From IMG/VR virus record IMGVR_UViG_2630968911_000005: a stretch of DNA of 27,633 nucleotides. One strand, given 5' to 3'. This document shows, one piece after another, positions 2-27,633 of the stretch. The position numbers and the translations under genes were made by a program. Origin of the DNA: a virus (taxonomy: Duplodnaviria > Heunggongvirae > Uroviricota > Caudoviricetes). Below the pieces are notes generated by a model that saw nothing but the letters and a program-made list of their open reading frames with translations, was not told the origin of the DNA and made no database searches. Numbering within the stretch: position 1 is the first letter of the stretch; each line of letters opens with the position of its first letter.

Positions 2-1297
2 TTAATTTTTCATTGCTTCGTTATGGGGCATGGTTGGGGCAAACTCGCTTAACTGTGTATTTAACAAAGCTACCTGTGCATTATTGTTTTCAGACATCCA
101 TTTTCCGTATACCTGAAATACCATTTGCGCATCTGCATGGCCCATCTGGTTTGCTATAAATGCCGGGTTAGCACCAGCTGTCAGCGACCAGCAGGCATAA
201 GTATGTCTCGACTGATATGATTTTCGATGGCGGAGTCCGGCACGTTTTATCGCTGCGTCCCACATCTGCCTTATTGAGTCAACGGTAAAATGGTCACCAT
301 AATTTTTTACTCTCGCTGACACTTCAGGTTGAAAAACAAAGGTGCATTTATGTTTTTCTGTTCTGCCATACTCTCTGAGGTGAACATCAATGATATGCTC
401 TTTGCTCAGTCTCGTTAATGTCATCTGACTCCGGAGAGCGTCGATTGCTGGCTTAATAAGATGAATGACCCGATTGGTTCCCGCCTGTGTTTTTGGTACC
501 GTGAAACGGTCTTTTGCTAAATTTCTCCTGATCATCATTGTTCCATTTTTCAGATCTATGTCCTCCCATCCAAGTGCACACAGCTCACCAGGGCGAACGC
601 CAGTATAAACAGAAACACACCATAAATTTTTGGCTTGCTGATTTCTGCACGCATCGATAAGACGGATGAATTCCTCCCGCGAAAGAGGATCCGGAATGGT
701 TCTTGATTCCTTTAATGGCGAGATCCCCTTAAACGGGTTATCTGCCAGGTAACCGTTATCAACACCAAACTGGAACACGGCGTTAAGATTTGTCATGTAA
801 TTATTTACAGTTACAGCCGATCTCCCTGGTTGTGTAACAATATAGTTACTTTTGGGGATCTGGTATCCAGTCAGTAGCTCTTTACGAACCTCCAGTAATT
901 TTTCTTTATTAATCGATGAGGCAAGATTTTTTTCACCGATTATGCTCAGGATATTTTTGATGACGGCACGGTATGTGTTGAGTGATGTTTTTGCGACTTC
1001 AGTTTCTTTCAGTGCCAGAAATTTTTCAGCCAGTTCTTTTATGGTTAAATCTTGTCGAGTCTCACCAAATTTTTCCAGATTGCGTGAGGAGGGAAACTGT
1101 TTTGCATAGTCGAAAACACCAGTTTTTATTGCGTAACAAACAGAGGCGCGTAGCTCACCTGCAACGCGCCTGTTTTTTGCTGTGTCAGGAACCCCCAGGT
1201 TTTCCCTGACTCTTACGCCTTTATAAACAAACCAGATACGTAATTTCCCTCCATGGTTTTCCACGCCTGTCGGATATTTCATTTCAACTTCTCTCAT
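2..1297 (-). CDS. Phage tyrosine integrase (site-specific recombinase), apparently intact; alternative start at 1282 (MKYPTG...)
   Basis: 431-aa ORF with stop at 2-4. C-terminal region has tyrosine-recombinase-like motifs (SRHTYA ... MGHA ... VYGKW). Lies next to an Xis-like gene at the prophage end. Confidence 0.9.
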   Translation of the reverse strand: MREVEMKYPTGVENHGGKLRIWFVYKGVRVRENLGVPDTAKNRRVAGELRASVCYAIKTGVFDYAKQFPSSRNLEKFGETRQDLTIKELAEKFLALKETEVAKTSLNTYRAVIKNILSIIGEKNLASSINKEKLLEVRKELLTGYQIPKSNYIVTQPGRSAVTVNNYMTNLNAVFQFGVDNGYLADNPFKGISPLKESRTIPDPLSREEFIRLIDACRNQQAKNLWCVSVYTGVRPGELCALGWEDIDLKNGTMMIRRNLAKDRFTVPKTQAGTNRVIHLIKPAIDALRSQMTLTRLSKEHIIDVHLREYGRTEKHKCTFVFQPEVSARVKNYGDHFTVDSIRQMWDAAIKRAGLRHRKSYQSRHTYACWSLTAGANPAFIANQMGHADAQMVFQVYGKWMSENNNAQVALLNTQLSEFAPTMPHNEAMKN

Positions 1298-1316: not shown

Positions 1317-1568
1317 TCAAGTAAGATGACGTCTTGGTCTTGCTGATGCCTGGCGCTCAATCCAGCGATCAATTTCTTCCAGGTTGTAAAAGCATGGACT
1401 GTTATCCCATGGCATACCGTCATGAGCGACATGCTTATATTCCCTTCCTTCCATAAACGATTTTTCCCGGGCCTTTTTTAACGTACCTTTTTTTATTCCT
1501 TTCAGCGCAATTAACTGCTCTTCGGATACCCATTTGCCGGGAGAGACAATCATGATTACTTCGCTCAT
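1317..1568 (-). CDS. Excisionase-like DNA-binding protein (Xis)
   Basis: 83-aa ORF directly upstream of int on the same strand. Contains GREYKHV, resembling the GREYLFH segment of lambda Xis as recalled. Confidence 0.65.
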   Translation of the reverse strand: MSEVIMIVSPGKWVSEEQLIALKGIKKGTLKKAREKSFMEGREYKHVAHDGMPWDNSPCFYNLEEIDRWIERQASARPRRHLT

Positions 1569-2230: not shown

Positions 2231-4111
2231 TCACCTTAATTGGGTGATCTGCCGTCTCGCCAGTTTCATTATCGCTATTGTGATGCTGATTGCCGCCAGT
2301 GTTCTCCTTGTGTGGATGTTCAGCGCCTTCCATTTCCTCCGGATCATCTCCTGAACTTCAACCTGATACTCTTCATCGAATGTTTCTTGGTATGTTGCGT
2401 CGCCCATCACCGCGCCACAATCAGGGCAGTTGCCGCCGCCGGTCTGACCGCAGGCGGTGCAGGCTTTTTCCACTTCCTGTTGCGCCACTGGTTCAGGCTG
2501 TTTCGTTTCTGGCTCGTTTTGTAACGCATTTGGACTGTTTTGTTCCGCTTTTTGGTAGTTCCGTTCCGATTCATGCTGGTTCTGGTTCACAGAATCGCGG
2601 GTCTGGAGCCCCTTAACCCATTTCGGATCATTCGGGTCACTAATCCCTTCAACAAATTCACCACGTGATGCAGCAAGCAACTTATCGGCGTCAGGCTGGC
2701 TGATATTGGCTGCCTGCATAATTTTGTTTACTTCGTCAGCGGTAACTTTTATCGGCTCTGGTTGTTCTGAATCTTCAGCGGTATCTACATTTTGCGGTAA
2801 GCCCGTGTATGTGCCATTTTTTCGGGCAAAATATTCTTCTTTTGTGATTTCAGTGGCGCCAGCAGCCAGTGCCTTATCCAGACCAGAGAGTTTGTTTGCG
2901 CGACCGTATTTTTCTCCGTCCTTATCTGCGAAGAGGAAATAGAACGGCCCCTCACGCTCTACAGATGGTTCAGCTTCCGGCGCGGTTTCATTTTTTGGGA
3001 TATCAGATACCTCAGTTTCCACTGCATCAGTTTGTGTTTCTGATGACTGGAGAACATCAACAGTGCCCAGGTCTGTTTCTTCATTCTCAAACACGCCCTT
3101 TGTCGTCAGGTATTCGCAGATATATTTGTTCAGTGCTACGGGATCTTTGTGAATGTCGATCGGACGCTCACGGACAAGGCCAAAAATAGTTTGGCGGTCG
3201 TAGCGAAGGGCATCAGGCTGTTTGCGCATTGATGCCGAGATACGCTTCCAGTCTTCGCGGTCGTTGTCGATAACTTCTTTTTTTGCCCAGCGATGGATGC
3301 TGCCGTCAATGTTTCCGGCATCCACATCACTAGGCCAGAGAGCGTAGGCCAGTTCGTCATCCAGTGTTTTCCATGTCTGCTTGTATTCGCGATGAATGGC
3401 AGCAATGACCGGGCTGATTTTTCCTGTTGAATTTTCAGTGTACTGTTGATTGGCTCTGGCGCGGGCGAGATCAACAACAGACGTGTATTTTCCGGTTTCC
3501 TTGCGTTCACCTTCGCGACGTTTTTTCCAGATGCGCATCTCTGCCTGAATTTCGGGCCATTTAGCACCAGGAATACATTTATGCTTAACCCACCCAATGG
3601 CGTGCAACTTAAGCTCCGGATACATGGCGTTAACTTCTGGCATTTTCATCAACGCTTCAACGATATGTCCGTCGAATGTTGCCATGTCTTCCTGCAACAA
3701 TTCCTGTGCGCTAATAACCATATCAACGGTGATGTTTTCACATGTGTCGAACTTAACCATGACAGCGTTCTGTACTTCAGGGGCCAGCTTGTCAAAAGTG
3801 ACGTTCATCGGATCGGATTCAGTCTCAACCGGGACAAAAGAAGCAGACTCCTCATCCCAGCGGTTTTCCTGCATATATTCAGCATCCCATGAATCGAGGG
3901 CAGGGCGGGGTATGCCAGGTTTATCCTCGCAGACAATAAATTTATAAGCGCAGTCCTGAGCAGCCGGATAATGTTCCAGGAATTGCCAGTGAAATTTTGC
4001 TCGAGCACGGCGTTCGTCGCCAGCTTCAATGGCTGTGGCTACAGCCACAGCGCCTTCTTCCCTTGTTGCCAGTTCGTCAGGAATAGCGGCGCAAATAAAG
4101 ACTTTACTCAT
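2231..4111 (-). CDS. Large early-operon protein, RecE (exonuclease VIII) N-terminal-region-like, ending in a Cys4 zinc ribbon; no recognisable nuclease domain
   Basis: Long ORF; ATG at 4109-4111 (MSKVF...) is preceded by GAGG 9 nt upstream. Internal segment KLLAASRGEFVEGISDPNDPKWVKGLQTRD resembles RecE as recalled. C-terminus has CTACGQTGGGNCPDCG. The acidic central region is low complexity. Confidence 0.6.
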   Translation of the reverse strand: MSKVFICAAIPDELATREEGAVAVATAIEAGDERRARAKFHWQFLEHYPAAQDCAYKFIVCEDKPGIPRPALDSWDAEYMQENRWDEESASFVPVETESDPMNVTFDKLAPEVQNAVMVKFDTCENITVDMVISAQELLQEDMATFDGHIVEALMKMPEVNAMYPELKLHAIGWVKHKCIPGAKWPEIQAEMRIWKKRREGERKETGKYTSVVDLARARANQQYTENSTGKISPVIAAIHREYKQTWKTLDDELAYALWPSDVDAGNIDGSIHRWAKKEVIDNDREDWKRISASMRKQPDALRYDRQTIFGLVRERPIDIHKDPVALNKYICEYLTTKGVFENEETDLGTVDVLQSSETQTDAVETEVSDIPKNETAPEAEPSVEREGPFYFLFADKDGEKYGRANKLSGLDKALAAGATEITKEEYFARKNGTYTGLPQNVDTAEDSEQPEPIKVTADEVNKIMQAANISQPDADKLLAASRGEFVEGISDPNDPKWVKGLQTRDSVNQNQHESERNYQKAEQNSPNALQNEPETKQPEPVAQQEVEKACTACGQTGGGNCPDCGAVMGDATYQETFDEEYQVEVQEMIRRKWKALNIHTRRTLAAISITIAIMKLARRQITQLR

Positions 4112-4663: not shown

Positions 4664-4993
4664 ATGTGCTGTGGCAGCCGCATGTTCTGGTTCGATAAGT
4701 CTGACGAACGGGCGATATTCAGCGATATCAGAAAAGAAGGATACACATTACGCAATGGGAGACGCTTGATTATCAGCCCTGACATTATCGCAGATTTTCG
4801 TGCATTATCATTTGCAGACGCATCTTTTTCGATGGTTGTATTAGACCCTCCGCATCTTGAGAGTGTTGGTGATAACGCCTGGATGGGAAAGAAATATGGA
4901 CGGCTGAATAAAGATGCCTGGCGTGATGATTCGCGACAGAGATTTAAAGAAGCCTTTCGGGTGTTGAGGCCGCACGGCGTTCTGATTTTTTAA
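4664..4993 (+). pseudogene. Truncated DNA N6-adenine/N4-cytosine methyltransferase fragment (DPPH motif)
   Basis: ORF contains SFSMVVLDPPH followed by RVLRPHGVLIF, the pattern of amino-methyltransferase motif IV and a downstream block. It stops right after, with no continuation in any frame. Confidence 0.5.
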
Positions 4994-5415
4994 TGGAATG
5001 AAACGCAAATACCGGTAAGCCAGATTCTGGCACTGACAGACAGAAAACCTGTTATCTGTCAACGAACAGGGAAAAAACGATAAAACCCACTGGATTATTT
5101 TTATGAAAGAGGCATCCAGTGAGTAGATTCGTAAGGCTACAGATACGTATATCTGAATAATTAAATTCAGTTCTGTAAATAAAATTTAATCCTTAACCGG
5201 ATGGATTTCTGCACCCTCAGAACATCAGGAGGCCGCCCGAAAGGGCGGTAGTGAAATGCGAAAGTTCAAAATTATTATTGAAACGGGAATAGCTGGTGGA
5301 GATTTTGAGGATGTATTCGAAGTGGACGATGACGCAACACCTGAGGAAATTCATGACGGAGCATAAGAAATTTTCTTTAACTACTGCAATTACTCATACC
5401 ACGAAATAAAAGACG

Positions 5416-5607
5416 ATGAGGAAGAACAAAGTGGCTGATTTTTGTTCAGCTAAATATAACATCAGTTTTGAAGAGCGGGATGAACTATTAATGGACTATG
5501 GTGAGTTACGCGGTGGAAGTGCTGCTGATGTCGAATCCTAGCGTGATGACTATGAAGCGGGAAAAACTCCGGTCGAAGCATATTGTGATGAGTGGGGCGA
5601 TGAATGA
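5416..5607 (+). pseudogene. Small ORF with in-frame amber codon (TAG 5539-5541); read-through frame stays open to TGA 5605-5607
   Basis: Manual translation: MRKNKVADFCSAKYNISFEERDELLMDYGELRGGSAADVES-TAG-RDDYEAGKTPVEAYCDEWGDE. The extended frame ends in an ATGA overlap with the next ORF. Confidence 0.3.
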
Positions 5608-5891
5608 GCGAGATTAATTATCAGGAAGGGCATGAAACGGCGGGGCAAGCAAAACCAGTGGCATGGCGATATCGCTACGTGAAAAAAGGCGTTACGGACT
5701 TTCAGGGGAAGTAGTGGTCTGGTGACTGGAAATATGTACCGAAAAAAGAGGATTGTAACGACAGGCCGAACTATCAAATTCAGGCCTTATTCACTGCCTC
5801 ACCAGTCCCAGTTACATCAGAAGAACTGGTTAAAGCTGTGCACTTTTATGAACAACTAAAACGCGAAAATCCACCAACATCCGGCAACTAG
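5604..5891 (+). pseudogene. Small ORF with in-frame amber codon (TAG 5712-5714); 95-codon frame if read through
   Basis: Manual translation: MSEINYQEGHETAGQAKPVAWRYRYVKKGVTDFQGK-TAG-WSGDWKYVPKKEDCNDRPNYQIQALFTASPVPVTSEELVKAVHFYEQLKRENPPTSGN. The downstream segment reads like protein and has no stops for 58 codons. Confidence 0.3.
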
Positions 5892-6145
5892 ATTAATGGA
5901 TTAACTATGTCGGTTAAACGACCAGCCAACTGAAAAAGCGGAAACCTGATTACAGGTTGCCAGATAAGGCAATGAGCTACCTGGCGCGGAACGGACTGAT
6001 AAGTATGGGGAATGTTTTACGATGAACCTTTAGACTAAAGAGTTTGTAACGCTATGTAAGTGATTTTTTCTGGTTTAGATATTTATATGTCCGGCCAAAT
6101 TGAGGTGTGTTTAAATGTAATTGCACATTGATTGTAGGAGGAATA

Positions 6146-6325
6146 ATGAAAAACGCATTGCAGTTTTTGTTTGTTGCGTTCTGGTTGTTCGCATCATGTA
6201 TGCCCATCATCTTCACAGCAAGGTATATGGAAAAAGTTGATGTTTTGATATTAATATTTGGATATATAAATGCCCTTTTTTTAGGGGTGTTCATGGCGGT
6301 CATGTGCATTGAATACTGGCGGTAA
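6146..6325 (+). CDS. Small hydrophobic protein (59 aa, two predicted transmembrane segments)
   Basis: ATG at 6146 preceded by AGGAGG 6 nt upstream. Product MKNALQFLFVAFWLFASCMPIIFTARYMEKVDVLILIFGYINALFLGVFMAVMCIEYWR. Confidence 0.45.
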   Translation: MKNALQFLFVAFWLFASCMPIIFTARYMEKVDVLILIFGYINALFLGVFMAVMCIEYWR

Positions 6326-6659
6326 ATACAGCGAACTCCATTGGTTTAGTTGGATATTTACTGTGCTGGACAAAAACGGTTTGCGGGGAAATCTTAGTTA
6401 AGTAGAATGACTGCGGGTGCTTGAGGCTATCTGCCTCGGGCATGGACACCAACGGCAGATAGAGAAAAGCCCCAGTTAACATTACGCGTCCTGCAAGACG
6501 CTTAACATTAATCTGAGGCCAATTTCATGCTAGACACATGTAGGTTAGCCTCTTACGTGCCGAAAGGCACGGAGAAGCAGGCTATTGTTAACACCAAGCT
6601 GTAATGTCCCCTTTGAACCATTCTAAAATGTCCCCAGACAATTCTCTGGGGGATTTTTC

Positions 6660-7973
6660 ATGATCAAAGAGACTGTTACGATGAGTCATAAGGAACTCCA
6701 CCGACTTCAGATTATTCAGGAACAAGCTGCGGCACGCATTGGCATTTCTATTCGGCAGGTTAAACGTCTGGTGCAACGGTATAGAAATGAAGGGCCTTCT
6801 GGTCTGGTTTCCCACCGACGTGGAAAGCGTCCTAATAATTCCTTTTCTACTGAATTCAGAGCAACAGTAATTTCACTCCTCAAAGGCCGTTACGCTGATT
6901 TTGGACCTACGTTTGCGTGCGAAAAATTGCGCGAGATACACGGTTTATCTTTATCCGTTGAAACTCTCAGAAAGTGGATGATAGAAGAGGGGTTATGGCG
7001 TGAACGCCGTCGTAAAATTGCCCGTATATATCAACGCCGCATGCGACGACCATCTTACGGTGAACTGATCCAGATTGATGGCTCACCTCATGACTGGTTT
7101 GAAAATCGAGGCCCCAGATGTACACTGATCGTTTTCATTGATGATGCCACCAGTGCGTTGATGGCGTTGCGTTTTGTGCCTGCTGAAACAACCCGGGCTT
7201 ACATGGAAACCCTCCGGGGTTACCTTAATGATCATGGCGTACCGCTCGCTCTCTACTCTGATAGACACAGTATATTCAGGGTAAATAACCCAGAGCGGGA
7301 AGGTGAGCTGACCCAGTTCACTCGTGCGATAAAGACACTGGGCATCGAGCCAATCCATGCCAACAGCCCGCAGGCAAAAGGGCGGGTAGAGCGCGCCAAT
7401 CAGACACTACAGGACAGGCTGGTCAAAGAAATGCGGCTTCAGAATATCAGTGATATTGAAACAGCAAATGCATGGTTGCCGACCTTTATTGAAGCCTATA
7501 ACAACCGGTTCGCTACGTCGCCTCGTACTACTGATAATGCTCATCTTGATGTGCACCATTCTGAAGAGGAACTGGGTTATATCTTCAGCCTACAGGCGAA
7601 GCGCGTTCTGTCTAAAAATCTCACTTTCCAGTACAAAAGCAGTGCGTTTCAGGTACGCAGTGAGGGCCGGGGATATCGACTTAGGCATTCGGTTGTTACT
7701 GTATGCGAGAACTTTGACGGTGAAATTAACGTTCTGTATGACGGGAAAGCGCTGGGCTGGGAAAAGTATGTTGATGGCCCGGAGCCTATACCACTGGATG
7801 ATGAAAAGAGTGTCCATGAACGAGTGGATAATGCCCGTATTGATTTACGCTCAAAATACTATGTTAAACCTAAAGCTGACCATCCCTGGCTTACGCGCCG
7901 AACGCAAAGTCATCAGCAAGTTAAGCCCCCGAAGTTACCTAAAAAGAAGCCTGATCCCGATAAAAAAGATTGA
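6660..7973 (+). CDS. DDE transposase/integrase, rve superfamily with N-terminal HTH; IS481-family or ISNCY(IS1202-group)-like
   Basis: 437-aa ORF. N-terminal pattern RQVKRLVQRYRNEGPSGLVSHRRGKRP; catalytic D (IQIDGS), D (LYSDRHSIF) and E (GRVERANQTLQ). RBS GGGGGA upstream of ATG. Confidence 0.8.
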   Translation: MIKETVTMSHKELHRLQIIQEQAAARIGISIRQVKRLVQRYRNEGPSGLVSHRRGKRPNNSFSTEFRATVISLLKGRYADFGPTFACEKLREIHGLSLSVETLRKWMIEEGLWRERRRKIARIYQRRMRRPSYGELIQIDGSPHDWFENRGPRCTLIVFIDDATSALMALRFVPAETTRAYMETLRGYLNDHGVPLALYSDRHSIFRVNNPEREGELTQFTRAIKTLGIEPIHANSPQAKGRVERANQTLQDRLVKEMRLQNISDIETANAWLPTFIEAYNNRFATSPRTTDNAHLDVHHSEEELGYIFSLQAKRVLSKNLTFQYKSSAFQVRSEGRGYRLRHSVVTVCENFDGEINVLYDGKALGWEKYVDGPEPIPLDDEKSVHERVDNARIDLRSKYYVKPKADHPWLTRRTQSHQQVKPPKLPKKKPDPDKKD

Positions 7974-8005
7974 AACCAAGATCGATTCGGTTGAGTGCAT
8001 TGATC

Positions 8006-8896
8006 CTACCCACGTAATATGGACACAGGCCTAAGCGAGGTTCTGGTTTTCAATTGTTCCGGACTGAGGCCGCCACACCAACTGTGCCGCCGCCACCGAT
8101 TGTAATCACATTCGATATAATTAAATACCGTTGCCCGCATTATTTCCCGGCTGATAAAGTGTTTTCCATGGATACATTCCACTTTCAGCGAATGAAAGAA
8201 GCTTTCCACGCAGGCATTATCGTAGCAGCAACCTTTTGCGCTCATACTTCCACGCAGATTATGCCGCTTCAGTTGCGCCTGATAATCTGCTGAACAGTAC
8301 TGGCCTCCACGGTCCGTGTGAACGATAACGTTCCGGGGCCTCTTACGCCGCCACAGCGCCATCTGCAGGGCATCGCAGGCCAGTTGCGCCGTCATGCGTG
8401 GCGACATTGACCAGCCAATAACGGCACGTGACCACAGGTCAATGACCACTGCCAGATACAGCCAGCCTTCATCTGTACGTAAGTACGTGATGTCTCCTGC
8501 CCACTTCTGGTTCGGGCCACTGGCGTAAAAATCCTGCTCCAACAGATTTTCTGACACAGGCAGGCCGTGTGCGCGGTAGCTGACCGGGCTGAACTTCCGG
8601 GAGGCCTTTGCCCTCAGTCCCTGACGGCGCAGGCTTGCCGCCACGGTTTTTACGTTAAAGGGGTAACCCTGAGCACGCAGTTCATCCGTCAGGCGTGGGG
8701 CACCGTAACGCTGTTTTGACCGGGTAAAAGCCGCGAGGACAACGCTGTCGCAGTGTTGGCGGAACTGCTGACGCGTGCTTATCCTTGTCCGCCGCTGACA
8801 CCACGTATACCAGCCGCTGCGGGCCACCCGGAGCACGCGGCACATTGCTTTGATGCTGAACTCAGCCTGATGTTTTTCAATAAAGACATACTTCAT
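8006..8896 (-). CDS. insF: IS3 transposase OrfB (InsF), DDE integrase core
   Basis: Protein matches IS3 InsF as recalled ([21 protein letters not shown] ... DRGGQYCS ...) except at the extreme C-terminus. Confidence 0.9.
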
Positions 8897-9192
8897 TTCA
8901 GGCGCTTCGCGAAGTATGTCGCGGCCTTTTGGAGGATAGCCAGCTCTTCATCCCGTTCTGCCAGCTGGCGTTTGAGACGTGCAATCTCGGTAGACATCTC
9001 CAGTTCACGTTCAGAAGACGTCTGCTGATTTTGCTGTTTACTGCGCCAGTTGTAGAGCAGTGATTCATACAGGCTGAGTTCACGGGCTGCGGCAGTAACA
9101 CCGATGCGTTCAGCAAGCTTCAGGGCTTCACTGCGAAATTCAGGCGAATGCTGTTTACGGGGTTTTTTACTGGTTGATACTGTTTTTGTCAT
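8893..9192 (-). CDS. insE: IS3 transposase OrfA (InsE), HTH protein
   Basis: [32 protein letters not shown]... matches IS3 OrfA as recalled. The ORF track begins 3 codons upstream (9201). Confidence 0.9.
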
Positions 9193-9669
9193 GTGAGTCA
9201 CCTCTGACTGAGAGTTTACTCACTTAGCCGCGTGTCCACTATTGCTGGGTAAGATCACATATCCATTCATAGGGTAGATTCTTAAGTCGCGTTTCTGGTG
9301 TTCATTTTCGGGTGGTTTGTTACTTGTTTTACCGGGGATATGCCAGAAACGCGCTGAGTCAGTCTGGGCGGTGCGCGTAATGAGGCGTTATGGTAAATAG
9401 CCTATGCTAATGTCCGCTAAGAGCAAGAAGCGGAAGTTGGCAGTTTTGTGGACTGTCCCCACAAAAGTGACTACAGAAATAGTTGCAATTCATAATTGAT
9501 CATGGGTTGTCAGTTAAACTCGTGGCGATTTAAATAGACTAATTGGGAGTGCGTCCATTACTTATATCTTGTAATGTTAACTATCAGAAATGATACAAAG
9601 ATAATATGTCTTTAAAGAAAAGGCTGATGGCGAAAAGTGGCCCGATGAGGGCCACAATACGGCTGTCAC

Positions 9670-14552: not shown

Positions 14553-14852
14553 AAAAATTCCTTAATACTGATAACTTGGCGCACTATACACACGTTCCTG
14601 AAGAAAGCTATAGTTTTTTGATGGGGTTGAAGATGGCTGGATGTCTAAAATAAACATTGCTTCATATGTTCAACTATGCGTTAATGATTGCGTCGGTTTG
14701 AAGAACAGACGATATACGAAGTAGTTTACTAAAGCAGTTCTCATTTCAGGTGTTATTCACTTATTCCTTCTTTGAGTCTCTCCAATTAAGTACGAAGTCG
14801 TTTCTGTTATGCAAACCATTTATGCCGAAAGGCTCAAGTTAAGGAATGTAGA

Positions 14853-15068
14853 ATGTCAAATAAAATGACTGGTTTAGTAAAATGGTTTAACGCTGATAAA
14901 GGTTTCGGCTTTATTTCTCCTGTTGATGGTAGTAAAGATGTGTTTGTGCATTTTTCTGCGATTCAGAATGATAATTATCGAACCTTATTTGAAGGTCAAA
15001 AGGTTACCTTCTCTATAGAGAGTGGTGCTAAAGGTCCTGCAGCAGCAAATGTCATCATTACTGATTAA
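14853..15068 (+). CDS. cspB: Cold-shock protein CspB
   Basis: 71-aa product with RNP motifs (KGFGFI, VFVHF). Long AT-rich 5' leader upstream. Confidence 0.92.
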
Positions 15069-15347
15069 AATTCATCGCTCGTCTGTATACGATAACGAAG
15101 AAGGCTGATGCCTGAGTAGAGATACGGACAGAGTAGTGAATATTGGATCTCTTTAATAAAAAGTAAGGAGGTCCAATACATGAAACAATGGCTAGCATAT
15201 TTGGCAAAATCTTAATCAGGAAAAGTATGCTAACCATTGTGGTGAAGTGCAGGTTTGCTGCATGAATAGTTTTACAGCAGAAGCTAACTGCTGGCATGGC
15301 AAAACAAAGTGCGTAAGTGGATGACTCCCACAAAAAGCACCACAATC

Positions 15348-17377: not shown

Positions 17378-17739
17378 GGTAATATTAAATCGGAACATTT
17401 ACATCGCGGAATGTAAAATTTAAATAAAAAGGACTCTTCCATGAGCCAAAATTCCTGAAATCTTAAGGGTAAGATAAAAGGTCTTAATCAGAATGACACG
17501 TTTTATTAATAAATAAAGCTATTCTTTCATTGCTGTGTTTTTCTTTACAAAAGTAATCCTTGCTATGGGTGGTTAATCATGCGTTAATGGTGTTCTGGTT
17601 TGTTACAAATTTATCTGAAGCAGTCATTGTTATAATTTTATTATTTGTACCTCTTGAGATTTCCTTGTTGGTTTTTCTCTCTGATATTTTTTTTCGGACC
17701 ATTCTGCCCAAGGGCTAATTTCTTCAAAAGGTAATAATT

Positions 17740-17952
17740 ATGTCTAACAAAATGACTGGTTTAGTGAAATGGTTTAACCCTGAAAAAGGTTTTGGTTTCA
17801 TCACGCCGAAAGATGGCAGCAAAGATGTGTTTGTCCATTTCTCAGCAATTCAGAGCAACGATTTCAAAACATTAACTGAGAATCAGGAAGTTGAATTTGG
17901 TATTGAGAACGGACCTAAAGGTCCTGCCGCTGTTCATGTAGTGGCGCTTTGA
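17740..17952 (+). CDS. cspI: Cold-shock protein CspI
   Basis: 70-aa cold-shock-domain protein ([34 protein letters not shown]...). RBS AAGGTAA. About 350-nt AT-rich leader. Confidence 0.92.
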
Positions 17953-18156
17953 GGTAGACAATATTACAAACCATATTCACTTTAGATGCCCGTGTTGTCA
18001 TGGTTCCCAGTATAGAACATCATCTTTTGATGTTTCTGACATGAATCCTTTCGGGGCAAAATGTATCTTTTGTAAATCAATGATGATTACATTTGATAAT
18101 ATTTCACAATACTTAAATGCCAGCCGTCTGTCGTTGGATTTAAAAAAGTGAAAATG

Positions 18157-20040: not shown

Positions 20041-20562
20041 ATGGAAGTCAACAAAAAGCAGCTGGCTGACATTTTCGGTGCGAGTATCCGTACCATTCAG
20101 AACTGGCAGGAACAGGGAATGCCCGTTCTGCGAGGCGGTGGCAAGGGTAATGAGGTGCTTTATGACTCTGCCGCCGTTATAAGATGGTATGCCGAAAGGG
20201 ATGCTGAAATTGAGAACGAAAAGCTGCGCCGGGAAGTTGAAGAACTGCGGCGGGCCAGCGAGACAGATCTCCAGCCAGGGACTATTGAGTACGAACGCCA
20301 TCGACTTACGCGTGCGCAGGCCGACGCACAGGAGCTGAAAAATGCCAGAGACTCCGCTGAAGTGGTGGAAACCGCATTCTGTACTTTCGTGCTGTCGCGG
20401 ATCGCAGGTGAAATTGCCAGTATTCTCGACGGGATCCCCCTGTCGGTGCAGCGGCGTTTTCCGGAACTGGAAAACCGACATGTTGATTTCCTGAAACGGG
20501 ATATCATCAAAGCCATGAACAAAGCAGCCGCGCTGGATGAACTGATACAGCATGGACGTTGA
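20041..20562 (+). CDS. nohQ: Terminase small subunit Nu1 homolog; C-terminal about 11 residues replaced at a deletion junction
   Basis: [42 protein letters not shown]... matches lambda Nu1 through ...AAALDELI, then ends QHGR. Confidence 0.9.
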
Positions 20563-23500
20563 GTACGGTCAGTACAGCGTTATTCTGTTGGTGGAGGGAT
20601 TCCCGCCGTCACATGCCGGGACCATCACCGTGTATGAAGATTCTCAACCCGGTACGCTGAATGATTTTCTCGGTGCCATGACGGAGGATGATGCCCGTCC
20701 GGAGGCACTGCGTCGTTTTGAACTGATGGTGGAAGAGGTGGCGCGTAACGCGTCCGTGGTGGCACAGAACACGGCAGCCGCAAAGAAGTCAGCCAGTGAT
20801 GCCAGCACATCTGCCAGTGAGGCGGCAACCCGTGCGACTGATGCTGCAGATTCAGCACGTGCAGCCAGCACGTCAGCCGGACAGGCCGCGTCGTCGGCTC
20901 AGTCAGCGTCTTCCAGCGCAGGAACGGCATCAACAAAGGCCACTGAAGCCTCAAAAAGTGCTGCCGCTGCAGAGTCCTCAAAAAGCGCGGCGGCTACCAG
21001 TGCCGGTGCGGCGAAAACGTCAGAAACGAATGCGGCAGCGTCAGAACAATCAGCCGCCACTTCTGCATCCACCGCGACCACGAAAGCGTCAGAAGCTGCC
21101 ACCTCAGCCAGGGATGCGTCGGCTTCAAAAGAGGCGGCAAAATCATCAGAAACGAGCGCAGCCTCGAGCGCCAGTCGTGCAGCCTCCTCGGCAACAGCGG
21201 CAGGAACTTCCGCGAAGGCGGCAAAAACGTCCGAGACGAACGCAAAGTCTTCTGAGACGGCAGCGGGACAGAGTGCCTCCGCAGCAGCAGACTCAAAAAC
21301 AGCGGCTGCCTCATCTGCCAGCGCCGCGTCAACAAATGCCGGGCAGGCCTCAGCCAGTGCCACCGCTGCCGGAAAGTCGGCAGAAAGCGCCGCATCATCC
21401 GCTTCAACAGCCACAACGAAGGCTGGCGAAGCCACTGAACAGGCCACGGTAGCAGCGAGGTCAGCTTCCGCAGCGAAGACATCCGAAACGAACGCGAAAG
21501 CGTCGGAAACCAGCGCAGAATCCTCAAAAACGGCTGCCGCATCGTCAGCCAGTTCGGCGGCGTCATCGGCATCATCGGCGTCTGCTTCAAAAGATGAGGC
21601 GACCAGACAGGCGTCAGCAGCGAAGGGCAGCGCCACGACGGCATCCACGAAGGCGACAGAGGCAGCTGGCAGTGCGACGGCGGCAGCTCAGAGCAAAAGT
21701 ACGGCGGAATCCGCGGCAACGCGCGCCGAGACAGCAGCAAAACGGGCAGAGGATATTGCATCCGCCGTGGCGCTTGAGGATGCGAGCACGACGAAAAAGG
21801 GGATAGTACAGCTCAGCAGTGCGACCAACAGTACGTCTGAAACGCTGGCGGCAACGCCAAAGGCAGTAAAATCAGCCTATGACAATGCAGAGAAACGTCT
21901 GCAGAAAGACCAGAACGGCACTGATATACCCGATAAGGGACGCTTCCTGAACAACATTAACGCGGTCAGTAAAATAGACTTTGCTGATAAGCGTGGTATG
22001 CGTTATGTGCGGGTTAACGCTCCTGCAGGTGCAACATCTGGAAAATATTACCCTGTTGTTGTTATGCGTTCTGCTGGCTCAGTAAGCGAACTGGCATCAA
22101 GGGTCATTATCACCACGGCAACGCGAACCGCAGGCGATCCGATGAATAACTGCGAGTTTAACGGATTTGTTATGCCTGGTGGCTGGACTGACAGGGGGCG
22201 TTATGCTTATGGAATGTTCTGGCAATATCAAAACAATGAACGAGCCATCCACTCAATAATGATGAGTAATAAGGGCGATGATTTGCGCTCTGTGTTCTAT
22301 GTTGATGGCGCTGCTTTCCCTGTTTTTGCGTTTATCGAAGATGGCCTGTCAATATCCGCACCTGGTGCTGATCTCGTTGTTAATGATACGACCTATAAGT
22401 TTGGGGCAACAAATCCAGCGACTGAATGTATCGCGGCGGACGTTATCCTTGATTTTAAGAGTGGGCGTGGTTTTTATGAGTCTCATTCGTTAATCGTTAA
22501 CGATAATTTGTCGTGCAAAAAACTTTTTGCCACAGACGAAATTGTAGCGCGTGGTGGTAATCAGATTCGAATGATAGGTGGGGAGTATGGTGCATTATGG
22601 CGTAATGATGGCGCTAAAACTTACCTGCTGCTTACCAATCAAGGTGATGTTTATGGTGGCTGGAATACATTAAGACCGTTTGCTATTGATAACGCAACCG
22701 GCGAACTGGTTATTGGAACCAAACTGTCCGCAAGTCTGAACGGTAATGCATTAACAGCAACAAAGCTGCAAACGCCAAGACGGGTTTCTGGTGTTGAGTT
22801 TGATGGTTCCAAAGATATTACTTTAACCGCCGCGCATGTGGCTGCTTTTGCCAGAAGGGCAACGGATACATATGCCGATGCGGATGGTGGCGTTCCCTGG
22901 AATGCCGAATCAGGTGCTTACAATGTCACCCGCTCTGGCGACAGCTATATTCTGGTTAACTTCTATACCGGAGTCGGAAGTTGCCGGACCTTGCAGATGA
23001 AGGCGCATTACAGAAATGGTGGTCTGTTCTACCGTTCTTCAAGAGACGGTTATGGTTTTGAGGATGACTGGGCAGAAGTTTATACCTCGAAAAATCTTCC
23101 ACCAGAAAGCTACCCAGTCGGCGCACCAATCCCGTGGCCATCAGATACCGTTCCGTCTGGCTATGCCCTGATGCAGGGGCAGACTTTTGACAAATCTGCA
23201 TACCCGAAACTTGCAGTGGCTTATCCGTCAGGCGTTATTCCTGATATGCGTGGCTGGACGATTAAGGGCAAGCCCGCCAGTGGTCGTGCCGTATTGTCTC
23301 AGGAACAGGACGGCATTAAATCGCACACCCACAGCGCCAGCGCATCCAGTACGGATTTGGGGACGAAAACCACATCATCGTTTGATTACGGCACTAAATC
23401 CACGAATAACACTGGTGCACATACCCATAGTGTTAGCGGTACGGCTGCTTCAGCCGGTGCACATACCCATTCGATGACATTTGTTTCAGGTGGTTCCAGT

Positions 23501-23752
23501 GGTGCTCCGGGAAGTGGATCACCTGATTATTCTAAATACAGTGTTAACACTTCTTCTGCAGGCGCTCATACGCACTCTGTATCGGGTACTGCTGCAAGCG
23601 CAGGTGCACACGCACATACTGTCGGTATTGGTGCTCATACGCACTCCGTTGCGATTGGCTCACATGGACACACCATCACCGTTAACGCTGCTGGTAACGC
23701 GGAAAACACCGTCAAAAACATCGCATTTAACTATATTGTGAGGCTTGCATAA
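20552..23752 (+). CDS. stfQ: Side tail fibre protein (lambda Stf family), N-terminally truncated by deletion
   Basis: Begins at lambda Stf internal [12 protein letters not shown]. Long Ala/Ser/Thr repeats (AAKTSETNA...). C-terminal GAHTHS repeats and ...[14 protein letters not shown]. Confidence 0.9.
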
Positions 23753-24327
23753 TGGCATTCAGAATGAGTGAACAACCACGGACCATAACAATTTATAATC
23801 TGCTGGCCGGAACTAATGAATTTATTGGTGAAGGTGATGCATATATTCCGCCTCATACAGGTCTGCCAGCAAACAGTACCGATATTGCACCGCCAGATAT
23901 TCCGGCTGGCTTCGTGGCTGTTTTCAACAGTGATGAGTCATCGTGGCATCTCGTTGAAGATCATCGGGGTAAAACGGTTTATGACGTGGCTTCCGGCGAC
24001 GCGTTATTTATTTCTGAACTCGGTCCGTTACCGAAAAATGTTACCTGGTTATCGCCGGAAGGGGAGTTTCAGAAGTGGAACGGCACAGCCTGGGTGAAGG
24101 ATACGGAAGCAGAAAAACTGTTCCGGATCCGGGAGGCGGAAGAAACAAAAAACAACCTGATGCAGGTAGCCAGTGAGCATATTGCGCCGCTTCAGGATGC
24201 TGCAGATCTGGAAATTGCAACGGAGGAAGAAATCTCGTTGCTGGAAGCATGGAAAAAGTATCGGGTATTGCTGAACCGTGTTGATACGTCAACTGCACAG
24301 GATATTGAATGGCCAGCACTGCCGTAG
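23752..24327 (+). CDS. tfaQ: Tail fibre assembly protein (Tfa)
   Basis: 191-aa ORF overlapping the stf stop (TAATG). N-terminus [26 protein letters not shown]. Confidence 0.85.
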
Positions 24328-24424: not shown

Positions 24425-25015
24425 TTATATGTCAGGTGTCTGAAGTTTTGCTTTGGCTCTTAAAATGGTTTGCCGCGAGGTTTTGAATTCCCGGGCAATG
24501 GCACTTATACTTACACCTGACTTAATTCGTTCGAATACCACCTGTTTCTGTTCTTCATTTAACACAGGTGGTCGACCAAAACGTTTCCCTGCGCCGCGGG
24601 CTCTTACTATCCCGGAATGAGTGCGTTCAAGTAAAAGGTCTCGTTCAAATTCAGCAACTGCTGAAATTACTTGCATCATCATTTTTCCTGTTGGACTGGT
24701 CAAGTCAATGCCCCCCAATGCTAAGCAATGTACTCTGATACCTGTTTCGGTCAGTTGTTCCACTGTTTTCCTGATATCCATTGCATTACAACCAAGGCGA
24801 TCCAGTTTTGTCACAATCAATTGATCACCACATTTCAGGCGAGCAAGCAACCGGTTAAAACTAGGACGCTCACTGGTTGCTGCTGAGCCGCTAATGTGTT
24901 CTTCGATTATTTGCTGAGGTTTGATTTTAAAACCTGCACTTTCGATTTCCCGGCGTTGATTTTCGGTGGTCTGATCCAGCGTTGATATCCGACAGTAAGC
25001 AAAAATTCGAGACAT
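24425..25015 (-). CDS. pinQ: Serine recombinase DNA invertase (Pin/Gin/Hin family)
   Basis: [20 protein letters not shown]... with the catalytic serine in the RIST motif. C-terminal HTH. Confidence 0.92.
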
Positions 25016-25331
25016 AGTGAGACTCTATACGAAATTGGTGTTCATATCATAATGCATCGCAGAAAATAATTTTGATTATTTTTGTGCATATTTGTATGTA
25101 CACGTTCGAAAATAAACGAATGCGTATGCAACCCCGTAATTTTGGTGAGACCCAAAATCGATTTTGTGAAAAATGGCTTTAACTCGGTTTGTTTTTCGAG
25201 TTCCGGGCGGACTCAAGGAAGAAGAATAGTGTTTCGTGTTATTTTAACCAGATTTTAAGTTGTTTGGTCGTGGAAAAGTGGAGCAAAATGTTGTTAAAGT
25301 GGAAAAATGATAAAAAAGTAAGTTTATTATA

Positions 25332-25565
25332 TTACATTTTACCATTTAAATTTTGGTTGTCTTTAAGAACTGATATCGCTGTTTGTAATAATTCTTTGTT
25401 ATCCAGCCATGATTTTTTCTTTATGTTTCCTTCAATGTAATCAAGCAATGTTCTGGTATTGATAGGTCTTCCCTGTTTTGCTACTTCCACTACAGCATCC
25501 CCTAGGATAATTCTTACTTCAGGAAGCTGCGCAGGGAACCACTTTAGGGTGTCTTTTGATTTCAT
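25332..25565 (-). CDS. ydfK: YdfK/YnaE-like small protein (77 aa)
   Basis: ATG at 25563-25565 with AAGGAA about 8 nt upstream. The ORF track begins 11 codons upstream. Confidence 0.75.
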   Translation of the reverse strand: MKSKDTLKWFPAQLPEVRIILGDAVVEVAKQGRPINTRTLLDYIEGNIKKKSWLDNKELLQTAISVLKDNQNLNGKM

Positions 25566-26349
25566 GAAGATATTCCTTAAAATATTATTGATTTTCATTG
25601 CGATATTGTATGTCTGATTCAGGATATGTTGACTTATACATCGGTTTTGTCTGGGTTATTGGATATGCCAATCCCTAATTTTATTAGGGCATGACTAAAA
25701 ATGCTGAATATGATAAGGAGAGAAGTGATTATCAGTATGCTGTTCATATAGCCTCGAATTAGTAATGTGTTATATATGATATAGTTGACAATTTTTATCT
25801 TGGGTGTTCTTAAAGTTCGTAGATAAACATTGTCGTTTCAGGTATACAGGAATGCTAACAGGTGGCAGCAAAAATCAGGCGGTTATGGCGCAAGCTGAAG
25901 CGGCAACTGCAAACTATCTTATGCAGAGACTCTACACGGATTGGGTTTAAAAGTATACATAGATAACAGTTTTTATCTGAAAAAGAAAAATATCAAGGTG
26001 ATATAGCCTATATGCCTTTGATGCGGAGGAATGAATGTGATGGGAGTGATGTATCTGAATAGTTGAAAAACCGCAGACACGCCTTATGCAAGAACGTGCT
26101 GCGGTTGGCTGGTAAATTTTTCGATAGTGTGAGTATTGAATGATTTCCAGCCGTTCTTGATTTTACGCATAAATCCATGAAAAAACTACTTATCTGTTGG
26201 GGAGTTTTTTTGGGGCATATATGGGACAGAAATAGGCCCCAGATAGACACTGAGATCGAACTTAGGATGCTTTTTAAAAAATGCAACTATCTGAAAAAAC
26301 CTAGAAAACGCCAAGGAAACCACAGGATGGGAAAAAACACCTGTGAATT

Positions 26350-27633
26350 ATGGATTTCCAGTTATATTCGCTCGGCGCAGCGTTAGTGTTTCATGAAATA
26401 TTTTTTCCTGAATCATCAACGGCAATGGCGTTAATTCTGGCAATGGGAACCTACGGTGCAGGTTATGTGGCGCGTATTGTCGGAGCATTTATTTTCGGCA
26501 AAATGGGCGACAGAATAGGGCGTAAAAAAGTGCTCTTTTTTACCATCACCATGATGGGGATCTGTACCACCTTAATTGGTGTGTTACCGACCTATGCACA
26601 GATTGGTGTTTTTGCACCCATCTTGCTGGTGACGTTGCGTATTATTCAGGGGTTGGGTGCAGGTGCGGAAATTTCCGGTGCCGGTACGATGCTGGCGGAA
26701 TATGCGCCAAAAGGTAAGCGCGGAATTATCTCCTCATTTGTGGCTATGGGAACTAACTGCGGAACCTTGAGCGCAACGGCAATCTGGGCCTTTATGTTCT
26801 TCATTCTCAGTAAAGAGGAACTGCTGGCGTGGGGATGGCGTATACCGTTCCTGGCGAGCGTTGTCGTGATGGTCTTTGCTATCTGGTTGCGTATGAATCT
26901 GAAAGAAAGCCCGGTCTTTGAGAAGGTTAACGACAGTAACCAACCGACAGCAAAACCTGCACCTGCTGGTAGCATGTTCCAGAGCAAATCCTTCTGGCTG
27001 GCAACAGGGCTGCGTTTTGGTCAGGCGGGTAACTCCGGGTTAATTCAGACTTTCCTTGCAGGCTATTTAGTGCAGACGTTATTGTTTAACAAAGCAATTC
27101 CAACAGATGCATTGATGATCAGTTCGATTCTCGGCTTTATGACCATTCCGTTCCTTGGTTGGTTATCCGATAAAATTGGTCGCCGGATCCCGTATATTAT
27201 TATGAATACCTCCGCGATTGTGCTGGCATGGCCAATGCTTTCTATCATTGTAGATAAAAGCTATGCCCCGAGCACCATTATGGTTGCACTGATTGTGATT
27301 CATAACTGTGCGGTGCTGGGATTATTTGCTCTGGAAAACATTACCATGGCAGAAATGTTCGGCTGTAAAAACCGCTTTACCCGGATGGCTATTTCTAAAG
27401 AAATTGGTGGTCTTATCGCTTCCGGTTTTGGTCCTATCCTGGCGGGTATTTTCTGCACCATGACGGAATCCTGGTATCCGATCGCCATTATGATCATGGC
27501 ATATTCAGTGATTGGTTTAATCTCTGCGCTGAAAATGCCAGAGGTGAAAGACCGTGATTTAAGTGCGCTGGAAGACGCTGCGGAAGATCAACCGCGTGTT
27601 GTAAGAGCTGCGCAACCTTCCAGAAGTCTGTAA
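26350..27633 (+). CDS. ydfJ: MFS transporter, metabolite:H+ symporter family, 5'-truncated at the prophage junction
   Basis: GKMGDRIGRKK loop motif lies at residue about 50; by comparison with ProP as recalled the frame starts mid-TM1. In-frame TGA two codons upstream of the first ATG. Confidence 0.85.
   Translation: MDFQLYSLGAALVFHEIFFPESSTAMALILAMGTYGAGYVARIVGAFIFGKMGDRIGRKKVLFFTITMMGICTTLIGVLPTYAQIGVFAPILLVTLRIIQGLGAGAEISGAGTMLAEYAPKGKRGIISSFVAMGTNCGTLSATAIWAFMFFILSKEELLAWGWRIPFLASVVVMVFAIWLRMNLKESPVFEKVNDSNQPTAKPAPAGSMFQSKSFWLATGLRFGQAGNSGLIQTFLAGYLVQTLLFNKAIPTDALMISSILGFMTIPFLGWLSDKIGRRIPYIIMNTSAIVLAWPMLSIIVDKSYAPSTIMVALIVIHNCAVLGLFALENITMAEMFGCKNRFTRMAISKEIGGLIASGFGPILAGIFCTMTESWYPIAIMIMAYSVIGLISALKMPEVKDRDLSALEDAAEDQPRVVRAAQPSRSL

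Follow-up and report, generated by a model that had tools for sequence, protein, structure and literature searches.

Prophages at ydfJ and the window analysed

The ydfJ gene is a very common lambdoid integration site. Qin integrates site-specifically at its 5' end, with the loss of the promoter and 28 N-terminal codons of the gene (Ramisetty and Sudhakari, 2019; PMC6379469), and ydfJ is listed as a Qin or lambda-like integration site in genome papers (PMC3032704; PMC2608844). The attP of a ydfJ prophage was determined by PCR on its excised form, and the att was given as 18 or 19 bp (Nakamura et al., 2021; PMC8112680, S7 Fig legend). In Escherichia coli K-12, the feature "cryptic prophage Qin" (NC_000913.3, 1632277..1652745) overlaps ydfJ by the 9-nt ATGGATTTC, and ynfP is annotated. 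The ydfJ junction is already known from this K-12 annotation and from both of these reports (Ramisetty and Sudhakari, 2019; Nakamura et al., 2021).

The window, i.e., the whole stretch of 27,633 nucleotides analysed here (IMG/VR record IMGVR_UViG_2630968911_000005), matches E. coli G4/9 (NZ_CP060073.1) over its full length with 99.975% identity (5 mismatches and 2 gaps). It is colinear with the K-12 cryptic prophage Qin and has the gene content of a Qin or PPydfJ-type prophage, with 99–100% identity to K-12 Qin in relBE, hokD, cspB/F/I, the lysis genes, nohA-stf, tfaQ, pinQ, ydfK, and ynfT. It represents a defective E. coli lambdoid prophage of the Qin family. The PGAP annotation of G4/9 gives the gene order as integrase, excisionase, exonuclease, ydfD, and dicB at the left end; a stretch riddled with IS; flxA, ydfV, relBE, hokD, rem, ydfU, ydfT, cspF, and cspB; the lysis genes, cspI, gnsB, and ydfO; a packaging-gene fragment fused to a long tail-fibre ORF; and, at the right end, tfaQ, pinQ, ydfK, ynfT, "ydfJ, incomplete; missing N-terminus", and ydfI. 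Deletion has been extensive: the prophage lacks head and tail genes, contains inserted IS elements, and has lost its immunity region.

K-12 Qin shares with this element the integration site, the core, the attR sequence (99.3% identity over 25000–26500), the ydfK-ynfT-pinQ-tfaQ end, and the 427-aa ydfJ remnant. However, the element in the window is ~26.4 kb (20.5 kb in K-12), keeps an intact integrase, excisionase, and exonuclease (in K-12, intQ is a pseudogene disrupted by IS2), and carries a long stf, IS3, and an ISNCY fragment, but not dicA, dicC, dicF, or ydfABC. The free phages mEp460_ev081, HannyBb, Tritos, and PhiR42_1 are also very close, their integrases being 99.1–99.5% identical (99.5% in mEp460_ev081) and their attP 98–99.6% identical over 25600–26358, while they are complete (45–49 kb) with an unrecombined attP and the window is an integrated, deleted derivative. 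The PPydfJ prophages of STEC (PMC8112680) likewise have their attB in ydfJ, and the ydfJ prophage of the Stx2_499 record has the same 140-bp P arm, but dinI and effector (nleC) cargo lie beside attR instead of ydfK/ynfT, and these prophages often occur in tandem clusters.

The integration functions are ordered as in phage lambda, with attL-int-xis at one end of the prophage and the P arm at the opposite end. Also as in the lambda module, the integrase appears heterobivalent with an arm-binding domain, repeated motifs are found in both arms, and a terminator-like hairpin lies shortly past the P arm on the downstream side of int. Unlike in lambda, the core and the arm motif (TGGGRCA) are other sequences, and attB lies within a coding sequence that the phage does not restore. 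The arm motif and the hairpin, both described below, are small additions to what is known of this site; neither was found in the papers cited here, which were read for Qin and the ydfJ site.

The att sites and the occupancy of ydfJ

A sequence-only reading of the window had placed a prophage-host junction inside ydfJ with an att core near 26340–26350, had expected the matching junction and the 5' part of ydfJ left of position 1, beyond an integrase at the opposite end, and had proposed an alignment of both junctions and a comparison with an uninterrupted ydfJ allele. We compared an empty attB (strain M217), attP (free phages mEp460_ev081 and HannyBb), attL (G4/9), and attR (the window) in a four-way alignment. 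The sites are exact reciprocal recombinants, base for base, as in lambda-type integration around a short common core: attL is attB left of the core plus attP right of it, and attR is attP left plus attB right. The 11-bp TTATGGATTTC (26348–26358), identical in all four att sites, is the only sequence that they have in common, and by this alignment the crossover lies within it. The junction inside ydfJ was thereby borne out, and the core was nearly where it had been sought: its first 3 nt fall within the proposed range, but the exact core overlaps the ATG of the transporter frame.

The boundary of the prophage in the window is 26358, and the right end adjoins ydfJ from codon 29 onward, and then ydfI; every base here agrees with the right half of attB. 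The core contains the ATG (26350) that encodes Met29 of YdfJ and extends 9 nt into the ORF. Its imperfect flanks extend the att to TGAATTATGGATTTCCAG (26344–26361), which has the form TGAATT(T)ATGGATTTC(C/A)AG and is 18 bp long here and 19 bp, with one extra T, on the attB/attL side, in agreement with the published definition (PMC8112680). The in-frame TGA (26344–26346) is phage-derived. In the free phages mEp460_ev081, HannyBb, Tritos, and PhiR42_1, the segment corresponding to 25600–26358 of the window is joined directly to the 3' end of int.

The left junction lies outside the window, and its structure is taken from genomes at least 99.9% identical to it. In G4/9, the attL core lies 37–47 nt left of window position 1 and is preceded by ydfJ codons 1–31 and rspB; this arrangement with a duplicated core was found in G4/9 and 2707 genomes. 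The interval of G4/9 from rspB to the integrase stop, ATGACAATAGAA...GAATTTATGGATTTC, encodes MTIEKHERSTKDLVKAAVSGWLGTALEFMDF and then phage DNA, and the left flank in the source genome of the window would be expected to read ...GCGCTTGAATTTATGGATTTCAAGAGTCATACGTGTCAACTATTTGATAAATATTAA with rspB before it. The mini-ORF at attL is of the ynfP type, with 42 aa in G4/9 and 36 aa in K-12, where ynfP is YdfJ residues 1–31 plus 5 phage codons. Joining the 5' piece of G4/9 to window position 26359 onward yields an uninterrupted frame of 1368 nt encoding 455 aa; the uninterrupted allele of M217 is likewise a 1368-nt gene (WP_000151243.1) directly after rspB. What had been expected to the left of position 1 is thus present in a 99.975%-identical genome, and the integrase does occupy the opposite end of the window (2–1297, minus strand).

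Of 5426 complete E. coli genomes, 2009 contain the empty site, queried as a 375-nt reconstruction of uninterrupted rspB-ydfJ, many of them at 100% identity, and in the empty-site genomes the hits of the two junction queries (attR and attL) break off at the core borders. The attR junction was found in 3169 and the attL junction in 2707 of the same 5426 genomes. The ydfJ site is occupied in ~58% of complete E. coli genomes, and it is used in Enterobacter too. Taken together, we put at about 97% the probability that the right end of the window is the attR side of a Qin-family prophage inserted in ydfJ by Int-mediated site-specific recombination.

In this explanation, attP was recombined with an attB spanning ydfJ codons 27–32 by an Int of the lambda type, whose reverse reaction uses Xis, and the strands were exchanged within the common TTATGGATTTC. 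The first 31 codons of ydfJ remain beside rspB at attL and read into phage DNA to give the ynfP-type mini-ORF, and codons 29–455 are found at attR behind phage DNA, which supplies the in-frame TGA two codons before the ATG of the core. The remnant is promoterless, and its Met29 start is an accident of the core sequence. Because the phage carries no replacement for the 5' end of the gene, integration splits ydfJ in two. K-12 Qin is unable to excise itself because intQ is a pseudogene, whereas int, xis, and both cores (the left one as read in G4/9) are intact in this variant; precise excision, if it happened, would regenerate full-length ydfJ.

The ydfJ remnant

The 3' part of ydfJ (26350–27633, plus strand) comprises codons 29–455 plus the stop of a 455-aa MHS-family MFS transporter. 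The ATG at 26350–26352 starts a 427-codon frame that is open to the last base of the window, and a single codon (ATT) separates it from the in-frame TGA at 26344–26346, just as the sequence-only reading had described (an ATG two codons after a TGA). That reading had also held that the gene is 5'-truncated and that its frame starts in the middle of TM1. Compared with full-length YdfJ (455 aa), the ORF at 26350 has neither a complete N-terminus nor an entire TM1. In the alignment to TIGR00883, the NCBIfam model for metabolite/H+ symporters, it starts at position 7 of 400, and in that to the NCBIfam ShiA model at position 37 of 438; when the 28 upstream codons are restored, the alignments start at 1 and 12, respectively. 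In the hydropathy profile of the restored protein, residues 1–12 are polar and the first hydrophobic span covers about residues 16–46, with Met29 in its middle. Hydropathy and the family profiles thus place the Met29 start in mid-TM1, as had been proposed. An AlphaFold2 model of full-length YdfJ from a shallow 13-sequence alignment (pLDDT 38) was too poor to place the TM1 boundaries and was left unused, and a sequence search of the PDB gave no relative at E ≤ 1e-5.

The truncation itself was confirmed by comparison with intact genes. The 455-aa YdfJ is encoded in the 2009 empty-site E. coli genomes, and orthologues of 455–458 aa occur in Citrobacter, Enterobacter, Lelliottia, and Pantoea, all of which keep the N-terminal 28 residues, with residues 12–28 almost invariant. 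The remnant has neither its own promoter nor the first 28 codons, and the conserved acidic residue E27 is absent from the 427-aa form. No Shine-Dalgarno-like sequence was seen by direct reading 5–12 nt upstream of the ATG at 26350, and a promoter and terminator scan of 25300–26500 gave counts no higher than in shuffled sequences.

A 427-aa YdfJ might still be made from the ATG of the core and retain some transport function. The ORF is intact and keeps its ATG, its TIGR00883 score (451.3) is above the cut-off (443.45), and the frame is open in many lineages, its cluster (P0001) having 3723 member sequences. We nevertheless consider a functional remnant unlikely, given the lost native promoter (PMC6379469), the empty Shine-Dalgarno interval, a promoter signal in 25300–26500 that does not rise above chance, and a protein from which half of TM1 and the acidic E27 are missing. 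Loss of function is likely because there is no Shine-Dalgarno-like sequence near the ATG and promoter-like sites occur at chance frequency; with the promoter, the ribosome-binding site, and the first half of TM1 lost, the truncated ydfJ is most likely inactive. The value of recognizing the ydfJ ORF of this genome as a prophage-truncated remnant lies mainly in correct annotation.

The K-12 RefSeq annotation keeps the 427-aa ydfJ ORF (b1543) as a CDS, and 427-aa homologues are also found in Enterobacter, as would be the case if ydfJ were natively 427 aa long from 26350 and the AT-rich DNA upstream were ordinary intergenic or island DNA. The 455-aa form in 2009 E. coli genomes and four other genera, with nearly invariant residues 12–28, speaks strongly against this, as does the PGAP flag of a missing N-terminus on the identical G4/9 sequence. 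The sequence-only reading had named a full-length homologue with its N-terminus at 26350 as the observation that would count against it. The homologues of 427 aa starting with MDFQLYS are the K-12-type E. coli cluster and Enterobacter forms such as E. kobei P0101. In each of the three contigs encoding P0101 that were examined, prophage genes (tail fibre, DinI, S24 peptidase, gtrABC) precede the gene, and the sequence resembling the P arm of E. coli phages stops at ...ATGGATTTC, precisely where it does in the window. The Enterobacter homologues were accordingly rejected as native short forms; with such neighbours and such an end point, we regard them as independent prophage truncations at the same codon. 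The interpretation of a truncated gene survives, the MDFQLYS-start homologues themselves adjoining prophage genes, and a native 427-aa ydfJ is so improbable that we give it practically no weight. Equally negligible is a junction made by deletion or illegitimate recombination at a decaying prophage edge, without a true att core, which the heavy deletions, inserted IS elements, and lost immunity region might suggest: the phage side of both junctions is the free phage attP to the base, the break points are identical in thousands of genomes, and the same ones occur in Stx-associated and Enterobacter prophages with different arms.

The spacer and the integration module

Between pinQ and the core, the genes of the right end are ydfK (25332–25565, minus strand), a cold-shock protein gene of the prophage, and, upstream of it on the same strand, ynfT (25634–25747), the annotated small gene of this region that encodes a 37-aa protein of the YnaM/YnfT family (PF23676, E 6.5e-28). 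The DNA in front of the transporter frame is AT-rich, as had been noted from the sequence, with a GC content of 0.30–0.40 across 25200–26300 vs. 0.45–0.51 within ydfJ. There is no further gene between ydfK/ynfT and the core; this spacer contains the shared ydfK-ynfT upstream region, a terminator-like hairpin, and the P arm.

A short ORF that the sequence-only reading had pointed out in this spacer at 25851–25949 does exist, but its coordinates were one base off (25852–25950, plus strand, 32 aa) and the significance implied for it does not hold. It is open only through a 1-nt deletion (TT at 25883–25884, TTT in K-12, mEp460, HannyBb, and 2H10); in these four relatives the frame from this ATG closes after 15 codons, and K-12 and 2H10 also carry stops in the downstream frame. 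It has no Pfam match and is annotated in none of the G4/9, K-12, or free-phage records checked. It was rejected as a small-protein gene, being a lineage-specific frameshift artefact. The ORFs at 26008–26286 (minus strand) and 26177–26386 (plus strand) have no Pfam match either, and the latter was rejected as a conserved phage gene of the integrated state, since it crosses the att core. An Rfam search of 25300–26450 gave nothing at the gathering score, with a weak CssrB match (25 bits vs. a cut-off of 76) and a spurious miRNA match.

A hairpin followed by a U-run, with the appearance of an intrinsic terminator, is encoded at 26064–26106 on the minus strand (ΔG −20.7 kcal/mol, z −4.2). The promoter and terminator scan missed it, as its 13-nt loop exceeds the limit of the scan. 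In the free phage it lies ~240 nt past the att core, downstream in the direction of int transcription, which is the position of tI/sib relative to int in lambda. By this analogy, the hairpin resembles tI/sib and may act as a terminator for int transcripts.

Near 26190, the window ceases to resemble phage 2H10, whose integration module is different and which has dinI at this point. The phage side of attR, i.e., the P arm of attP (26208–26347), also occurs at the right end of the Stx2_499 prophage, an end that otherwise differs, and it can be bounded at ~140 bp because the similarity of that ydfJ-integrated prophage covers only 26208–26347 plus ydfJ. In the free phages mEp460_ev081 and HannyBb, the P arm is contiguous with int.

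At the other end of the window, the tyrosine integrase (2–1297, minus strand) is intact, with an ORF of 431 aa (426 aa from the PGAP start) and an N-terminal Arm-DNA-bind_2 domain (PF12167, E 5.6e-24), a SAM-like domain, and a catalytic domain (PF00589, E 3.9e-18). An excisionase of the DUF1233 family (1317–1568, minus strand; E 1.6e-31) is adjacent to it, and together they have the composition of a heterobivalent lambda-type module.

When the attP of the free phage was searched for repeats, both arms proved to have repeats containing TGGGGCA. In the window, these correspond to TGGGGCATATATGGGACA in the P arm (26211–26228, plus strand), with two TGGGRCA copies at 11-bp spacing, and to TGGGGCATGGTTGGGGCA in the P' arm (24–41, plus strand), which falls in the 3' end of int at a distance of ~60 nt from the core of attL. 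The pattern TGGGRCA-N4-TGGGRCA, which was defined after inspection of the data, has exactly these two matches in the window and none in 100 shuffles. Enterobacter ydfJ prophages have P arms that are otherwise unrelated to this one, and the P-arm pair is among the few blocks that they conserve. Moreover, phi330 and CharmingMan, whose integrases are ~62% identical and whose cores are different, have the same layout, with a pair inside the 3' end of int and 3–4 copies 146–215 nt past the int stop, at 11-bp spacing throughout. The paired TGGGRCA motifs are likely arm-type Int-binding sites, because of this layout and conservation and the arm-binding domain of the integrase.

Two further steps could be taken from here: that the paired motifs may be previously undescribed arm-type sites of an enterobacterial lambdoid integrase clade that includes integrases of Stx-phage records, and that this variant may excise precisely and rebuild a functional 455-aa ydfJ, i.e., a reversible on/off switch. 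We put these two readings forward very tentatively and consider them unlikely. The arm-site motif and the intact int and xis might be of use for excision studies of Qin-type or STEC PPydfJ prophages. A second repeat, CAACTATYTGAWAAA, is present at 26284–26298 of the window, with its other copy in the P' arm, 15 nt beyond the core. The Stx2_499 record retains this repeat and Enterobacter does not, and it is a candidate IHF, Xis, or Int site.

Integration at ydfJ across genera

Prophages in the Enterobacter contigs L010-L012 (junction at locus 2990-3010) sit in ydfJ at the same codon as in E. coli, with a quite different cargo including gtrABC, DinI and an S24 peptidase. Because the same codon is used by Enterobacter prophages carrying different cargo, we conclude that the ydfJ attB is a hotspot for integration across genera.

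Candidate protein-binding sites in the attP arms

Each attP arm carries one pair of TGGGRCA motifs with 11-bp spacing, located at window positions 24-41 and 26211-26228. The same layout was found in L013 and L014, loci of phages whose integrases are merely ~62% identical and whose core sites are different; there, TGGGRCA occurs at the int 3' end and 146-215 nt beyond the int stop codon, again with 11-bp spacing. The paired motifs probably serve this integrase clade as its arm-type sites.

A further repeat, CAACTATYTGAWAAA, is found on either side of the core and thus occurs in both arms: at window positions 26284-26298, and outside the window 15-29 nt to the right of the attL core (this copy at 2277-2291 in L006, the locus carrying that core). 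A partial, inverted copy is present at about 26057-26065. The repeat is kept in the Stx2_499 record, which contains another ydfJ-integrated prophage, and was not conserved in the Enterobacter ydfJ prophages compared. It may be a site for IHF, Xis or additional Int binding.

A terminator-like hairpin beyond the P arm

A strong hairpin with a U-run (26064-26106, minus strand; dG -20.7 kcal/mol, z -4.2) lies, in the free phage, just past the P arm and downstream of int. In lambda, tI/sib occupies this same position. The same element is found after dinI in phage 2H10, which has a different integration module. On the plus strand, 25966-26103 weakly matches the Rfam family CssrB, an sRNA encoded on the Shigella chromosome (25.3 bits, below the gathering score of 76; E 0.0085); paralogous prophage-end sequence may be its source.

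Gene content compared with K-12 Qin

Compared with K-12 Qin (L004 17150-19526), this Qin variant lacks dicA, dicC, ydfX, ydfABC and dicF at window positions 4664-9258, where they are replaced by a SAM-methyltransferase gene, DUF7167 and other pseudogenes, a fragment of an ISNCY transposase and one copy of IS3 (8006-9201). It retains dicB and ydfD while lacking the repressor and promoter region that these two genes have in K-12. At 20041-23752, a fragment of a DNA-packaging (nohA-like) gene leads directly into a 1066-codon tail-fibre ORF, whose N-terminus PGAP flags as missing. The head and tail genes have all been deleted from this element, as they have from K-12 Qin, whose stf part is much shorter.

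Four Rfam matches in the window exceeded the gathering score: IS009 RNA within the tfaQ 3' end (24095-24293), two cspA-type thermoregulator leaders, of cspB (14692-15084) and cspI (17594-17979), and sok, the antitoxin RNA that pairs with hokD in this toxin-antitoxin locus (6415-6586).
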